Source: a virus (lineage: Duplodnaviria > Heunggongvirae > Uroviricota > Caudoviricetes). From it: a stretch of DNA of 43,020 nucleotides. The position numbers and the translations under genes are program-made. The stretch lies in IMG/VR virus record IMGVR_UViG_2585427786_000006. One strand, 5' to 3'. This document shows positions 3,436-41,782 of this stretch, piece by piece; positions within the stretch are counted from its first letter, which is position 1, and every line of letters begins with the position of its first letter. The notes beneath the pieces were generated by a model. That model was not told the origin of the DNA, did no database searches, and was given only the letters and a program-made list of their open reading frames with translations.

Positions 3436-3610
3436 TATCGCGTCCTCAACAATGAATTTTGTGATGCAGTGCCTGGTGCCTCCAGGTGACGTTAACCAGT
3501 TAACAATTAACGCCGGATACAGAGAATCCACCCATAACACTGTTTTTGGTTTTAACTGTTCCGCGTGCGCTTAGCCGCATTCACCGCATCACAAAATTCA
3601 CTTTAAAAAC

Positions 3611-3662
3611 GGCGGCAGAGCAGTCACGGAGTAAAACTGATACCGCCAAACGTCACCAGAAA
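3611..3662 (-). ncRNA. dicF: DicF small RNA
   Basis: Reverse complement reads TTTCTGGTGACGTTTGGCGGTATCAGTTTTACTCCGTGACTGCTCTGCCGCC followed by GTTTTT, recognised as DicF with its intrinsic terminator. Confidence 0.8.
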
Positions 3663-8665: not shown

Positions 8666-8922
8666 ATACAGCGAACTCCATTGGTTTAGTTGGATATTTA
8701 CTGTGCTGGACAAAACGGTTTGCGGGGAAATCTTAGTTAAGTAGAATGACTGCGGGTGCTTGAGGCTATCTGCCTCGGGCACGAACACCAACGGCAGGTA
8801 GAGAAAAGCCCCAGTTAACATTACGCGTCCTGCAAGACGCTTAACATTAATCTGAGGCCAATTTCATGCTAGACACATGTAGGTTAGCCTCTTACGTGCC
8901 GAAAGGCAAGGAGAAGCAGGCT

Positions 8923-9078
8923 ATGAAGCAGCAAAAGGCGATGTTAATCGCCCTGATCGTCATCTGTTTAACCGTCATAGTGACGGCACTGGTAACGAGG
9001 AAAGACCTCTGCGAGGTACGAATCCGAACCGGCCAGACGGAGGTCGCTGTCTTCACAGCTTACGAACCTGAGGAGTAA
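8923..9078 (+). CDS. hokD: Hok-family type I toxin (51 aa)
   Basis: MKQQKAMLIALIVICLTVIVTALVTRKDLCEVRIRTGQTEVAVFTAYEPEE recognised as HokD/RelF; AAGGAG RBS; in-frame upstream extension from ATG 8866. Confidence 0.8.
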   Translation: MKQQKAMLIALIVICLTVIVTALVTRKDLCEVRIRTGQTEVAVFTAYEPEE

Positions 9079-10942: not shown

Positions 10943-10959
10943 TTTTGTGGAGTAAGTTG

Positions 10960-11337
10960 ATGCGTGATATTCAGATGGTTCTTGAGCGTTGGGGGGCATG
11001 GGCGGCTAATAATCATGAAGATGTGACCTGGTCGTCCATTGCCGCCGGTTTTAAGGGATTAATTCCTTCAAAAGTAAGATCTCGTCCGCAATGCTGTGAC
11101 GATGACGCGATGATCATTTGTGAATGTATGGCTCGCCTGAAAAAAAACAACAGCGATTTACATGATTTATTGGTGGACTATTATGTCGGCGGCATGACTT
11201 TTATGGCGCTTGCACGTAAGCATGGGCGATCTGATTGTTGGGTTGGCAGGATGCTCCAGAAAGCTGAGGGCGTAGTGGAGGGCATGCTGATGGTGTTGGA
11301 TCTCCGATTGGAGATGGATGCTGATTGTTCGAAATAA
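10960..11337 (+). CDS. late-gene antiterminator Q (125 aa)
   Basis: [26 protein letters not shown]... recognised as lambdoid Q (DLP12/21-type); followed by promoter-like element and short-RNA terminator. Confidence 0.75.
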
Positions 11338-11378: not shown

Positions 11379-11435
11379 TTTAAATGTTGGAATCGCAACG
11401 TAGTTATTATCATATAACAGCTTGTTTCCTGATTT

Positions 11436-11464
11436 AGCCAGCCTCCCCAAAGGCTGGTTTTTTT
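11436..11464 (+). terminator. tR'-like intrinsic terminator
   Basis: AGCCAGCC-loop-GGCTGG hairpin followed by T7 run. Confidence 0.55.
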
Positions 11465-11492: not shown

Positions 11493-12017
11493 TTATTGTT
11501 TAACCCATAATAGTTCATTGACATTGAATCCCAACTTTTGAGCGGTACGCACATAGTCTGCTTTTACATTATCTGGAATAGTTTGGGTCCTTGCCAGAAT
11601 CCATAGGTATTCTCTGTTCGGACCACTGACAAGAGCATACTTATACTCATCATCCAGCTTGATTACATTATAGCCACCATAGAAGGGGCCAAAAAACGAA
11701 ACTTTCAACGCTGCAGTTTTAGTATCTCCAGTAAAGTATGCTTTACCTTCGCTCTCGCTCCATTTGTTTTTCGTTGGATCGTATCCACGGTTAAGTACGC
11801 GAATCCCTCCGTCGTTCCGTTTTTCATAAGTAGCGCTGACCTGTTCCAGACCACGTTCGAACCAGTTCTCGAGGCGAGCTATTTCATACCATTTTCCGAG
11901 GTAGCGGTTGGCGTCAAAATTTGTAATCGGCTGCACACCTTTAGGTGGTGTCGGGGCCTTACATGCTATAAGAGTGAAAGAGAGTGCAATGCCAGTCAAC
12001 ACAGGCCATAACTTCAT
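11493..12017 (-). CDS. blc: outer-membrane lipoprotein lipocalin (Blc family), 174 aa
   Basis: Lipobox LIAC; NFDANRYLGKWYEIARLENWFERGLEQVSATY...GKAYFTGDTKTAALKVSFFGPFYGGYNVIKLD recognised as Blc-like; antisense to late transcription. Confidence 0.8.
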   Translation of the reverse strand: MKLWPVLTGIALSFTLIACKAPTPPKGVQPITNFDANRYLGKWYEIARLENWFERGLEQVSATYEKRNDGGIRVLNRGYDPTKNKWSESEGKAYFTGDTKTAALKVSFFGPFYGGYNVIKLDDEYKYALVSGPNREYLWILARTQTIPDNVKADYVRTAQKLGFNVNELLWVKQ

Positions 12018-12209
12018 AATAAATCCTGTACTTTTGATAGTTGAGAGTAAGTATGAAAGATAGATGAGTACGACCGATCACTTAAAGAACTTTCCTACTA
12101 TATTAGGAATAGTCAATAACAGAAAAATTGTCAGTGATGAAGCCAGAAAGGCAATTTAGTCCGTGCACTACAAAGTTTATGTGTTAATGAATTAGTCAAG
12201 GGGGAGGAA

Positions 12210-13169
12210 ATGATAAAAAAACCTGTGATTGGGATCAGCGGTTGTTTGGGCGGTTCTGCTGTTCGTTTTGATGGTGGTCACAAAAGAGATGACTTTTTAA
12301 TGGACAAATTAGTGGAATGGGTAACATTCAGACCAGTATGTCCGGAAATGGCTATAGGGCTGCCAGTTCCGCGTCCTGCTCTACGACTTGTGCGCTCGAA
12401 GCAAGGAAATATACGGATGTGTTTCAGCCACGACCAGAATGAGGATGTGACAGAGAGAATGACAGAGTTTAGTCGTTCTTATATGGACAAATTAAAGGAT
12501 GTATCGGGGTTTGTGGTTTGTGCTAAATCTCCCAGCTGTGGCATGGAGCGCGTGCGTGTCTATGATGAAAATGGTAATCGAGGTCGTAAAGATGGAGTGG
12601 GACTATTTACGAGCACTTTGATGGAAAAGTTTTCCTGGCTACCGGTTGAAGAGGATGGGCGATTACATGATCCAGTGCTTCGTGAGAATTTTATTGAAAG
12701 AGTTTTTGCTTTGCATGAGCTCAATCACCTTTACAAGGAGAAATTATCAAGAAGAGAGTTATTAGCTTTTCATAGTCGTTATAAGCTTCAGTTGTTGGCG
12801 CATAGCCAGGCAGGCTATAAAGATATGGGACCATTTGTGGCTGCAATACACGAGTGGGCGGACCTTGAATCATACTTTGAGGTGTATCGTGATAATCTGA
12901 TGGCGATTCTCAGAAAACCAGCATCACGTAAAAATCACACGAATGTGCTGATGCATATACAGGGGTATTTTAGTAATTACTTAAGTACACGCCAGCGTAA
13001 AGAGTTGAGCGAGGTTATACTTAACTATCGCTTTGGCACATTGCCTCTTCTTGCGCCGTTGACTCTGCTGAAGCATTATCTGGGTGAGTATCCTAATGAT
13101 TACTTGCTTACACAGAATTACTTCGATCCCTATCCGGAAGAACTGGCTCTAAGACTGATGGTGAATTAA
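12210..13169 (+). CDS. DUF523 (TudS-like, Cys-rich)-DUF1722 (YbgA-like) fusion protein, 319 aa
   Basis: N-terminal GISGCLGG...CPEMAIG...CAKSPSCG motifs; C-terminal YbgA-like region; GGGGGAGG RBS. Confidence 0.55.
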   Translation: MIKKPVIGISGCLGGSAVRFDGGHKRDDFLMDKLVEWVTFRPVCPEMAIGLPVPRPALRLVRSKQGNIRMCFSHDQNEDVTERMTEFSRSYMDKLKDVSGFVVCAKSPSCGMERVRVYDENGNRGRKDGVGLFTSTLMEKFSWLPVEEDGRLHDPVLRENFIERVFALHELNHLYKEKLSRRELLAFHSRYKLQLLAHSQAGYKDMGPFVAAIHEWADLESYFEVYRDNLMAILRKPASRKNHTNVLMHIQGYFSNYLSTRQRKELSEVILNYRFGTLPLLAPLTLLKHYLGEYPNDYLLTQNYFDPYPEELALRLMVN

Positions 13170-13575
13170 CTGTATGCGATATCATCTGAAAGTGATGAGT
13201 TCCTGTATGCAGGATATTTACAATCGTAAAAACTACGCTATGATGCTCATAGTGTCAGTTTTTATAAAAATCCTGTTCACGCTAAAGAAAACATTGAGAT
13301 GCAATTTAATGTTGGTAAACATACCAGCCCCAAACGATTTTATTCAATCTGTTTTTATATGAAGATATTTCAAGTGAATATTAAGAGTATATAATATTAT
13401 TATTGCACGCAGCTATTATAATATAACAGATTAGTTTAATGATTTGTTTTTTGTGAGTTAAACACATGGTTTTATAGTTGTGATGCAATGAGATTTTCCT
13501 TATTGTTGAACTGGCGAATATTGATTTTCCACCTATACTTACCTGGTGTAACCCCAATGATATCAGGTGGATAAT

Positions 13576-14289
13576 ATGCCATACATATGTTCTATCATTT
13601 TGGTGTTGAACTCGTTTGGTGTCCGAATTGGTAAAGAAGATATTTTGTTTAAAAAAGGAAATGCTGTCCTCATTGAATACAATTTAAAAGATCTTTTTTC
13701 GTCAAATACAGATCATCTAATGATCGTAGATGTTGAGGAGAAAACAGTTAATGATTTCTTTAAAAACTACACACTCTCACCTTTTTCTGTAAGAAGGTTT
13801 TATCCGTCATACTTGATAGTAGAATGTGAAGATTTTTCATTGTTAAAGAACTTGGTTGCATGCTTGAATTGTGATAGCAAAACCGTGGATGTAGTTAGAA
13901 ATCAAATATCACTTGCATGTCTTGCTGTCTTATCTTCAGAGAAAATAGTGCAAAGTTTTTTGTTCGGAAGTCTTAATAGCTTAGGTTGTAAAGTTAAGGC
14001 TATTATTCACTCGGATATCTCAGCGTCATGGAGACTTTGTGATATATCTTCAAGATTATATATGAGCGAGAGTTTGTTAAAAAGAAAATTAAAAGACGAA
14101 GGATTATCGTTTAGTAAATTAATTCTTGAAGAACGAATGATGATGGCGCAAAGATTATTGATCTACAGTAACCATACTGTCGGCAAGGTGGCGGGAATAT
14201 GCGGGTATGACAATGCATCATATTTTGTAAGTGTTTTTAGAAGATATTTTGGTGTGCCTCCGCACCAATATTTATCAAGATTTTCTTAG
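13576..14289 (+). CDS. AraC-family transcriptional regulator, AppY/GadX-like (237 aa)
   Basis: C-terminal AraC HTH (LCDISSRLYMSESLLKRKLKDEGLSFSKL...ICGYDNASYFVSVFRRYFGVPPHQY); N-terminus resembles AppY; AT-rich gene and flanks. Confidence 0.75.
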   Translation: MPYICSIILVLNSFGVRIGKEDILFKKGNAVLIEYNLKDLFSSNTDHLMIVDVEEKTVNDFFKNYTLSPFSVRRFYPSYLIVECEDFSLLKNLVACLNCDSKTVDVVRNQISLACLAVLSSEKIVQSFLFGSLNSLGCKVKAIIHSDISASWRLCDISSRLYMSESLLKRKLKDEGLSFSKLILEERMMMAQRLLIYSNHTVGKVAGICGYDNASYFVSVFRRYFGVPPHQYLSRFS

Positions 14290-14356
14290 AAGATATGATG
14301 TGATGGCATTTTATAAAGTTATTTTTTGAAGTGTAAGATTATACGATATTTTTAGC

Positions 14357-14389
14357 TACGCCAGAATAATTGCTGGCGTTTTTCTTTTT
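14357..14389 (+). terminator. intrinsic terminator after the AraC-family gene
   Basis: CGCCAG-AATAATT-GCTGGCG hairpin then TTTTTCTTTTT. Confidence 0.5.
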
Positions 14390-14479
14390 GAATAGATGTT
14401 CGGGCCTTACGCTAATGTAACTTCTTTCCTTCTTCGAACCAAACCGTGTACACCATCCGTTATCTGCGGAGGTGAGGCT

Positions 14480-14695
14480 ATGAAATCCATGGATAAGTTA
14501 ACAACGGGCATCGCCTACAGCACCTCTGCAGGCAGTGCTGGCTACTGGTTTTTACAGTTGCTCGATAAAGTCACACCCTCACAGTGGGCGGCAATAGGTG
14601 TATTGGGTAGTCTGGTATTTGGCATGCTGACGTATCTGACAAACCTTTATTTCAAGATTAAAGAAGACAGGCGTAAGGCTGCGAGAGGAGAGTAA
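14480..14695 (+). CDS. pinholin, phage-21 S-type with dual start (71/68 aa)
   Basis: [71 protein letters not shown]; GGAGGTGAGG RBS; Met1 and Met4 starts. Confidence 0.8.
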
Positions 14696-14942: not shown

Positions 14943-15239
14943 TTATTCAATGTCTGGTAGCTTATCAAAGATTTCGGATACTCTTATATTTGTCATATAA
15001 GCAAATTGAGATTCTGCCAGCTCTTTGGGTGATTTTCCCGCTTTTTCTGAGCCAAAAATTGTTTCTAAAGCCAGCATGTTATATTTGAGAACCTCTTCTC
15101 GAGTTTTACCTGATAATTTTGCGGTAACAGCAATATAAAAAGGCAACACTTTATCCAGAAGGTCGTTGTGTTTTGTCAGTTGTGGTAATACCACATCAAG
15201 TTGCTTACTGATTGGTTTGAATGGATCTATACCGTTCAT
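14943..15239 (-). CDS. hypothetical protein (98 aa), antisense gene inside the lysis cassette
   Basis: ATG preceded by AAGGGA; non-repetitive protein MNGIDPFKPISKQLDVVLPQLTKHNDLLDK...; candidate TTAAGC-N17-GATACT promoter in 15270-15330. Confidence 0.5.
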   Translation of the reverse strand: MNGIDPFKPISKQLDVVLPQLTKHNDLLDKVLPFYIAVTAKLSGKTREEVLKYNMLALETIFGSEKAGKSPKELAESQFAYMTNIRVSEIFDKLPDIE

Positions 15240-15366: not shown

Positions 15367-16394
<1,028 letters not shown>

Positions 16395-16757
16395 ATTAAT
16401 ATTAAATCGGATTATTTTTAGCGCTGAATGTGAAATTTAAATAAAAAGGACTCTTCCATGAGTCAAAATCCTTGAAATCTTAAGGGTAAGATAAAAGGTC
16501 ATTAGACAGAATGACACGTTTTATTAATAAATAAAGCTATTGTTTCATTCGTGTGTTTTTCTTTACAAAAGTAATCCTTGCTATGGTTGGTTAATCATGC
16601 GTTAATGGTGTTCTGGTTTGTTACAAAATTATCTGAAGCAGTCATTGTTATAATTTTATTATTTGTACCTCTTGAGATTTCCTTGTTGGTTTTTCTCTCT
16701 GATATTTTTTTTCGGACCATTCTGCCCAAGGGCTAACTTCTTCAAAAGGTAATAATG

Positions 16758-16970
16758 ATGTCTAACAAAATGACTGGTTTAGTGAAATGGTTTAACCCTG
16801 AAAAAGGTTTTGGTTTCATCACGCCGAAAGATGGTAGCAAAGATGTGTTTGTCCATTTCTCAGCTATTCAGAGCAACGATTTCAAAACGTTAACTGAGAA
16901 TCAGGAAGTCGAATTTGGTATTGAGAACGGACCTAAAGGCCCCGCGGCTGTTCATGTTGTGGCACTTTGA
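16758..16970 (+). CDS. cspI: cold-shock protein CspI-like (70 aa)
   Basis: [39 protein letters not shown]... with RNP motifs; long AT-rich 5' leader upstream. Confidence 0.85.
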
Positions 16971-17169
16971 GGTAGAAAATATTACAAACCATATTCACTT
17001 TAGATGCCCGTGTTGCCATGGTTCTCAGTATAGAACATCATCTTTTGATGTTTCTGACAGGAATCCTTTCGGGGCAAAATGTATCTTTTGTAAATCAATG
17101 ATGATTACATTTGATAATATTTCACAATACTTAAATGTTAGCCGTCTGTCGTTAGATTTAAGAAAGTGA
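16954..17169 (+). CDS. YnfN-like Cys-rich small protein
   Basis: ...[54 protein letters not shown]; ATG overlapping the cspI 3' end; start uncertain. Confidence 0.4.
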
Positions 17170-17175
17170 AAATGA

Positions 17176-17197
17176 AGGCTCCTTCGGGAGCTTTTTT
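17176..17197 (+). terminator. intrinsic terminator after the cspI/ynfN unit
   Basis: GGCTCC-TTCG-GGAGC hairpin plus T6. Confidence 0.55.
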
Positions 17198-17241
17198 GCT
17201 TAGTGTCTAGTCGATGGATACTCACATATTACGGTAACATT

Positions 17242-41207: not shown

Positions 41208-41782
41208 TGGTATTCAGAATGAGTGAACAACCACGGACCATAACAATTTATAATCTGCTGGCCGGAACTAATGAATTTATTGGTGAAGGTGATGCATATA
41301 TTCCGCCTCATACAGGTCTGCCAGCAAACAGTACCGATATTGCACCGCCAGATATTCCGGCAGGCTTCGTGGCTGTTTTCAACAGTGATGAGGCATCGTG
41401 GCATCTCGTTGAAGATCATCGGGGTAAAACGGTTTATGACGTGGCTTCCGGCGACGCGTTATTTATTTCTGAACTCGGTCCGTTACCGGAAAATGTTACC
41501 TGGTTATCGCCGGAAGGGGAGTTTCAGAAGTGGAACGGCACAGCCTGGGTGAAGGATACGGAAGCAGAAAAACTGTTCCGGATCCGGGAGGCGGAAGAAA
41601 CAAAAAACAACCTGATGCAGGTAGCCAGTGAGCATATTGCGCCGCTTCAGGATGCTGCAGATCTGGAAATTGCAACGGAGGAAGAAATCTCGTTGCTGGA
41701 AGCATGGAAAAAGTATCGGGTATTGCTGAACCGTGTTGATACGTCAACTTCACAGGATATTGAATGGCCAGCACTGCCGTAG
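41207..41782 (+). CDS. tail fiber assembly protein (Tfa)
   Basis: M(V/A)[42 protein letters not shown]...; TAATG overlap with stf stop. Confidence 0.85.

Follow-up and report, generated by a model that had tools for sequence, protein, structure and literature searches.

A PatE-like AraC/XylS regulator gene as cargo between Q and the lysis genes of a Qin-like prophage of Escherichia coli

The DNA analyzed here, referred to as the window, is the 43,020-nucleotide (nt) stretch of the IMG/VR virus record IMGVR_UViG_2585427786_000006 (Caudoviricetes), and the element under study is a gene for an AraC/XylS-type regulator located in the late region of this phage genome. The coding sequence was assigned to positions 13576 to 14289 on the plus strand and specifies 237 amino acids (aa). 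This was deduced from open reading frame (ORF) analysis, Pfam, and the Prokaryotic Genome Annotation Pipeline (PGAP). The ORF for the regulator (13567 to 14289, +) starts at a GTG; the ATG at 13576 is backed by PGAP and by all homologs, and the PGAP coding sequence WP_024168019.1 in an identical genome has the same coordinates. A Shine-Dalgarno-like AGGTGG (13562 to 13567, +) is found 8 nt 5' of this ATG, and in an alignment of upstream regions the sequence CAGGTGG was kept in two further alleles of the gene, B and C (the window carries allele A), and in the loci of two more distant relatives, P0013 and P0015. Two ORFs in the upstream spacer, 13174 to 13362 (+) and 13381 to 13557 (-), were considered and dismissed, as they fall in a hypervariable or promoter region and are not called by PGAP in an identical genome.

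The product is deduced to be an intact AraC/XylS transcription factor, for which DNA binding and activation are predicted. This assignment is supported by the following data. A beta-rich N-terminal domain occupies about residues 1 to 135, and a DNA-binding domain with two helix-turn-helix (HTH) motifs occupies about residues 136 to 237. The C-terminal domain matched Pfam HTH_18 over residues 161 to 237 at 63.8 bits (cut-off, 33.6) and HTH_AraC over residues 204 to 236 at 47.8 bits (cut-off, 26.6), while phmmer aligned residues 138 to 235 with the DNA-binding domain of GadX (3mkl) at an E-value of 4e-21. An AlphaFold2 model was built from 16 homologs, with a mean predicted local distance difference test score (pLDDT) of 83 and values of 88 to 95 across residues 131 to 230. 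In this model the C-terminal domain superimposes on GadX 3mkl with a root mean square deviation of 1.4 to 1.7 Å and a template modeling (TM) score of 0.87 to 0.90 at 40% identity. It also matches MarA, SoxS, and AdpA, and shows the seven-helix fold. A chance ORF is excluded because 237 codons are maintained in DNA of 32% G+C (GC) content, the profile E-values are 1e-17, and the ratio of nonsynonymous to synonymous divergence (dN/dS) is 0.18. An earlier note on this DNA, made from the letters alone, had proposed an AraC-family regulator resembling AppY; the family assignment held, both HTH profiles being present above their cut-offs.

Within the AraC family, full-length alignment was restricted to the subgroup of GadX, GadW, YdeO, AppY, PatE, and the Psr proteins. 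The NCBIfam YdeO model covered residues 1 to 231 of 237 with an E-value of 9.7e-33 and a score of 113.8 bits (cut-off, 348), while HilD (95.4 bits; cut-off, 354), GadX (90.1 bits; cut-off, 500), and other NCBIfam models covered only the C-terminal part. No NCBIfam equivalog cut-off was reached by the regulator. In PHROGs it belongs to phrog_1450, a group listed as of unknown function; the sources that were checked gave no functional name for it, and no paper was found on the gene or on the cassette that contains it. When 1.84 billion cluster representatives were searched exhaustively, only 10 clusters came up at an E-value of ≤1e-30, and the full-length family is therefore small.

Characterized relatives were taken from the K-12 and Sakai genomes for comparison. 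The highest identity was to PatE (ECs_0287), at 48% overall, 66% in the DNA-binding domain, and 35% in the N-terminal domain. The corresponding values, in the same order, were 39, 55, and 24% for PsrA (ecs1087, taken as the full 237-aa ORF), 33, 45, and 24% for GadW, 30, 38, and 22% for AppY, and 29, 40, and 20% for YdeO. The overall values for GadX (41%) and YbcM (23%) apply to aligned segments, namely, the C-terminal 101 aa for GadX and 125 aa for YbcM; their domain values were 40 and 14% for GadX and 24 and 13% for YbcM. From these alignments, PatE is the closest characterized relative, the window protein falls in a PatE-like clade, and it is not an ortholog of YdeO, GadX, HilD, AppY, or PatE. 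The description AppY-like thus stood at the level of the subfamily, while PatE-like is the better term given the identity values of the two proteins.

PatE (Z0321/ECs_0287) is encoded by prophage CP-933I/Sp1 of E. coli O157:H7. It resembles the window protein in size (247 versus 237 aa), in being prophage-borne in AT-rich DNA, and in having an upstream TATACTT box and a GGTGG ribosome site. The first recognition helix, SESLLKRKLK, is the same in both proteins, and the gene for P0015, a protein with 84% identity to PatE, is found in the Q-holin slot. The differences are in the N-terminal domain and in the second recognition helix, where the predicted base-contacting positions read A-S-Y-V-S in the window protein, V-S-Y-T-Y in PatE, and W-S-Y-I-S in PsrA. 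These positions were mapped from the MarA-DNA structure, and the mapping agrees with the alignment offsets. Furthermore, patE in Sakai is placed terminally in a degraded prophage, outside the interval between Q and the holin gene S.

The other relatives differ mainly in their settings. PsrA and PsrB, the prophage-encoded secretion regulators of O157:H7 (ecs1087, z1789, z2104), are AraC-type proteins. PsrA, like the window protein, has 237 aa and is encoded just 3' of Q in a lambdoid prophage (Sakai Sp4), but the neighbors of the Psr genes are effector and pch loci and tRNA genes, with neither of the genes blc and ybgA that precede the regulator in the window. AppY, from DLP12 of E. coli K-12, is a prophage-borne member of the same subfamily under the control of H-NS and RpoS, but its gene is at the far right end of DLP12, adjoining ompT, and outside the Q-S slot. 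GadX, GadW, and YdeO show full-length homology, and the predicted DNA-binding domain fits the GadX crystal structure, but their genes are chromosomal, whereas the window gene is prophage-borne and outside the acid fitness island. The best full-length structural matches were to Rns, CsvR, and ToxT, fatty-acid-binding virulence regulators of pilus and toxin genes (Foldseek E-values of 4e-11 to 2e-7 over about 250 aligned columns; sequence matches at 5e-19 to 6e-11). In these cases, however, identity is 17 to 20%, and the TM score is only about 0.44, since the orientation of the domains differs and the N-terminal domain of the window protein, with six strands in the model, is the shorter one.

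The window was identified as a Qin-like lambdoid prophage of E. coli whose integration site adjoins rspB, and many E. coli chromosomes match it at 100% identity. Its gene content includes dicB/DicF, hokD/sok, rem, ydfU, Q, lysis genes, cspI, and head and tail genes. The cargo slot is bounded on the left by the antiterminator gene Q (10945 to 11337, +; PF06530; PGAP start, 10960). The slot then holds the gene for a Blc-like outer-membrane lipocalin (11493 to 12017, -; Pfam Lipocalin_2; NCBIfam Blc, 312.6 bits with a cut-off of 267) and a YbgA-family gene (12210 to 13169, +) encoding a 2-thiouracil desulfurase domain fused to DUF1722. The regulator follows, and the right border is an essD-like gene for a P21-type class II holin (14480 to 14695, +; PF04971) with an M-K-S-M dual start. 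Beyond it lie the lysozyme gene (15367 to 15900) and an Rz-like gene (15897 to 16394). The position between Q and the lysis genes was as the earlier note had placed it, although blc and ybgA separate the regulator from Q. Between a DUF1327 gene and the lysozyme gene, a 98-aa ORF at 14943 to 15239 (-), annotated by PGAP as hypothetical, had no match in Pfam, NCBIfam, or PADLOC. PADLOC was run on the regulator and four neighbors (Blc, YbgA, the DUF1327 protein, and this ORF) and returned no defense-system match, the Blc lipocalin paralog and the YbgA fusion protein included. An Rfam scan at the gathering threshold gave no RNA family within or beside the regulator gene. Elsewhere in the window it gave the DicF small RNA (3610 to 3661, -), the sok antitoxin RNA of the hokD locus (8754 to 8928, +), and an IS009 RNA (41550 to 41748, +) near the tail-fiber end.

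The 2.0-kb blc-ybgA segment is flanked by a direct repeat of 38 to 39 nt, D1. Copy 1 (11398 to 11435, +) starts 60 nt past the Q stop codon and abuts a hairpin terminator at 11436 to 11459, and copy 2 (13407 to 13445, +) lies in the upstream region of the regulator gene. The local alignment score of the two copies was 41, compared with 19.0 ± 2.4 for dinucleotide shuffles, and none of 500 shuffles reached 41. A degenerate D1 also follows quuD in K-12 DLP12. D1 is most simply read as homology at a module junction, from a stage at which the regulator stood directly after Q, as in loci L094 and L095. A synthetic query for the product of recombination between the copies (Q-D1-AraC without blc-ybgA) found no place covered to at least 80% in 5,426 complete E. 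coli genomes, the set used for all genome counts below. Two candidates for such a deletion, H56 and H57, were rejected, as blc-ybgA is still present in both.

The repeat bears on the question of whether the protein is a regulator of the phage life cycle, acting on the late and lysis transcription of its own phage or on induction, and perhaps binding D1. The significant 38-nt repeat common to the Q-proximal leader and the upstream region of the regulator would fit this, as would the location of the gene 3' of Q and directly 5' of the holin gene in every relative examined. D1 is equally explicable as module-junction homology, however, and lambdoid phages that do not have the gene, such as K-12 DLP12 and Qin, keep the same Q and lysis modules. 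In many cases the gene carries a frameshift or is gone although the lysis genes are intact, and no AraC-type regulator is known to be required for lambdoid late transcription. A life-cycle role is therefore deemed very improbable. A more elaborate proposal is that PatE-like regulators are dedicated occupants of the Q-holin slot because their dose is to be coupled to late transcription. D1 would then not be a recombination scar but would serve as a second late promoter, a site for Q loading, or a site for autoregulation, linking the regulator mechanistically to the late operon. Expression would be basal and under H-NS and sigma-S control in the lysogen, and on induction strong read-through by Q-modified polymerase would reprogram the acid-resistance and motility regulons of the host. 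We regard this as unlikely.

The segment was found in 974 of the 5,426 genomes (about 18%), always on the chromosome and in at most three places per genome. The match was at ≥99% identity in 328 genomes and at 80 to 90% in 576, and the carriers include commensal, livestock, enterotoxigenic, and clinical isolates. The exact window protein occurs on 896 contigs, and one member of its cluster is from E. albertii. At least three alleles can be distinguished, A being that of the window, B a 243-aa form with about 86% protein identity, and C a form with about 77%; allele B is intact in the isolated phage IdasGreatGrand. Among GTDB species representatives the sole close locus (L011; JARKOR010000151.1, 3.2 kb) carries an allele-B gene with 86% protein identity and is binned as "Candidatus Nanosynbacter"; it was rejected as almost certainly mis-binned E. 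coli phage DNA. The gene order was examined in the best 80 of 155 viral-contig hits in IMG/VR. Wherever the flanks were present the order was Q (+), Blc (-), YbgA (+), AraC (+), and holin (+), with all three cargo genes in 72 of the 80 loci and the remainder ending upstream at a contig end. In DLP12-like prophages the blc-ybgA-regulator cassette replaces nmpC.

The history of the regulator could be separated from that of its neighbors. Relative to allele-B phages, identity is 97 to 100% in blc-ybgA, falls to below 60% in 13264 to 13412, and is 79 to 95% within the regulator gene. The synonymous divergence (dS) is 0.33 for the regulator versus 0.045 for ybgA and 0.063 for blc, that is, five to seven times that of the flanking cargo; the dN/dS value given above is likewise for a comparison with another allele. 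Between alleles A and B, dS is 0.12 in the N-terminal half (13576 to 13960) and 0.77 in the DNA-binding half (13961 to 14289), and this difference implies intragenic recombination. The genes for P0013 (60% identity) and P0015 (51% identity) have as immediate neighbors a Q gene of another family (PF03589 or PF06323) and the holin gene, without blc or ybgA. Together with the position of PsrA, these loci show that the PatE-like clade is a recurrent occupant of the Q-holin slot. They also support the suggestion of the earlier note that the regulator was separately acquired, as do the drop in identity, the dS values, and a GC content about 10 points below that of blc and ybgA.

The same data were used to weigh a second alternative, namely, that the protein acts locally on the divergent blc/ybgA promoter region (12018 to 12209), so that the three genes form one functional cassette, whose signal might be a lipid or a thio-nucleobase. 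AraC-family proteins often regulate neighboring genes. The blc-ybgA pair is directly 5' of the regulator in all 80 IMG/VR loci, of allele A or B, where the flank is present, at least 80% of the entire 3-kb block is present in 883 of the 5,426 genomes, and no genome has a Q-AraC junction without blc-ybgA. Moreover, the overall predicted fold resembles the fatty-acid-binding proteins Rns and ToxT, and Blc is a lipid-binding lipocalin. Against this, P0013, P0015, PatE, and PsrA have neither a blc nor a ybgA neighbor, and L009 and E. coli B strains have kept blc-ybgA but not the regulator. The regulator also has a different history (dS of 0.33 versus about 0.05; GC content of 0.33 versus 0.43 to 0.44), and every characterized relative targets distant host genes. 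A local role is accordingly considered improbable.

The base composition of the segment is extreme. The earlier note had marked the span 13363 to 14389, which comprises 213 nt of the upstream spacer, the regulator gene, and the terminator, as markedly AT-rich with a terminator of its own, and both features were recovered. The GC content of this span is 0.319 versus 0.493 for the whole window, and only 2 of 840 sliding 1,027-nt windows have a lower value, both of which overlap the span itself. AT content is 68% over 1.0 to 1.2 kb at the regulator segment, the lowest GC content in the window. The regulator gene has a GC content of 0.333, with 0.307 at third codon positions, and the 406-nt spacer from 13170 to 13575 has 0.31, while blc and ybgA have 0.43 to 0.44. 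Silencing of the segment by H-NS is plausible from the AT content and from the precedents of appY, which is under H-NS regulation, and psrA, which goes up on expression of the small RNA HnrS, a repressor of hha. A second AT-rich island (16250 to 17200; GC content of about 0.35) contains a cspA-type thermoregulator of the 5' untranslated region (RF01766, 16600 to 17016) ahead of a cspI-like cold-shock gene at 16755 to 16970.

The AT-rich spacer between ybgA and the regulator (13170 to 13575, +) is divided into a hypervariable part (13264 to 13412) and a conserved promoter-proximal part (13413 to 13575); positions 13413 to 13612 are 91 to 100% identical in allele B. Insertions of IS1, IS3, and IS903B recur in the equivalent spacer of other loci (H62 to H65 and L097). 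The candidate proximal -10-like element is CTATACTTA at 13533 to 13541 (+), which was selected by conservation. Its TATACTT lies 35 nt 5' of the ATG at the same distance in alleles A, B, and C, P0013, P0015, and PatE. No good -35 element accompanies it at this position. CTATACTTA resembles a sigma-S-type -10 element with C at -13. A distal sigma-70-like candidate, TTGTGA-16-TATAGT (13451 to 13478, +), matched 9 of 12 positions in a consensus scan. At the 3' side, between the regulator and the holin leader, an intrinsic terminator was identified at 14358 to 14389 (+). It consists of a hairpin with a 7-bp G+C-rich stem and an 8-nt loop (ACGCCAG-N8-CTGGCGT, 14358 to 14379) followed by the T-run TTTTTCTTTTT. 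The folding energy of the hairpin is -11.6 kcal/mol (z = -2.4 versus shuffles), and the hairpin is kept in alleles B and C and in the locus of the distant relative P0015.

The function of the protein was approached through its relatives. AppY directly binds and activates gadE, gadY, and nhaR. PatE and PsrB activate gadE and hdeA (-132 to -45), and PsrA and PsrB repress type III secretion via GadE and YhiF. The statement of the earlier note that prophage AraC regulators of this type act on host acid-resistance and virulence regulons was thus sound, with PatE, PsrA/B, and AppY acting on gadE, hdeA, and the locus of enterocyte effacement. All characterized members of the subgroup act on the acid fitness island, and activation of acid resistance would therefore be expected of the window protein. 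By this analogy, it is somewhat favored that the protein activates glutamate-dependent acid resistance. The explanation as a whole, which we put at a probability of about 0.6, is that the gene encodes a PatE-like cargo regulator of the acid fitness island of the host, expressed as follows. In the lysogen, transcription would start from a weak promoter of its own, for which the CTATACTTA -10 element at 13533 to 13541 is the candidate; the element hints at stationary-phase (sigma-S) control. Higher expression of patE in stationary phase is reported. H-NS and Hha would probably damp the promoter, as for appY and psrA. The protein is proposed to bind AT-rich sites in promoters of the acid fitness island (gadE and hdeAB), so that glutamate-dependent acid resistance would be switched on; as with its characterized relatives, motility or type III secretion might be repressed as a secondary effect. 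On induction, RNA polymerase modified by Q would proceed from the late promoter across the cargo and transcribe the regulator, as happens with other genes located in this slot. Read-through of the terminator of the regulator is expected because the gene lies 3' of Q on the strand of the late operon.

Several observations weigh against a PatE-like regulator of host acid resistance expressed in this way. The activation of gadE and hdeA is experimental for PatE and is predicted by homology for the window protein; at 48% identity to PatE, the target specificity may differ. A search of literature and data sets found no experiment or data set on the window protein. The GAD box TTAGGATTTTGTTATTTAAA, allowing up to three mismatches, had no match in the window, and the high-affinity H-NS motif TCGATAAATT, allowing up to one mismatch, had eight matches in the window but none within 13170 to 14400, which adds nothing to the AT content in favor of silencing. 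Promoter-like matches in the consensus scan of the region were no more frequent than in shuffles, and the putative promoter was assigned by conservation only. A frameshift was found in two of the three copies of non-window alleles that were examined (L008 and L010; L007 is intact), IS1 replaces the regulator gene in L009, and a shortened 195-aa form accounts for 623 cluster members. From these three observations the gene was deduced to be dispensable, and in otherwise similar prophages it is absent or replaced. By position, dispensability, and deviant GC content, the regulator is a lambdoid late-region moron.

The recurrence of frameshifts, truncations, and insertion sequences in other genomes, along with the very low GC content of 0.32, would also suit a silent or decaying passenger, one that is intact in the window by recent descent, is permanently silenced, and has no effect on the host. 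Very low GC content is typical of silenced foreign DNA (xenogeneic silencing). This interpretation is at odds with the dN/dS of 0.18 across alleles, with dS reaching 0.77 in the DNA-binding half, and with the conservation of the promoter-proximal 160 nt, the ribosome-binding site, and the terminator. An identical protein on 896 contigs and the retention of the gene in an isolated phage also speak against it, as does the finding that appY, patE, and psrA, although silenced, are functional and are expressed under certain conditions. A mere passenger was therefore judged unlikely.

The prophage AraC regulators AppY, PatE, and PsrA/B provide some of the clearest examples of how phage genes are integrated into the acid-resistance and virulence circuits of the host. 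The regulator described here is an unstudied and widespread addition to this group, present in about one complete E. coli genome in five. That a whole PatE-like clade is placed in the Q-holin slot is a minor organizing observation, but a useful one. Should the protein indeed activate gadE and hdeAB as well, survival in gastric acid would be subject to a common modifier that varies between strains, which would help to explain their differences in acid resistance.

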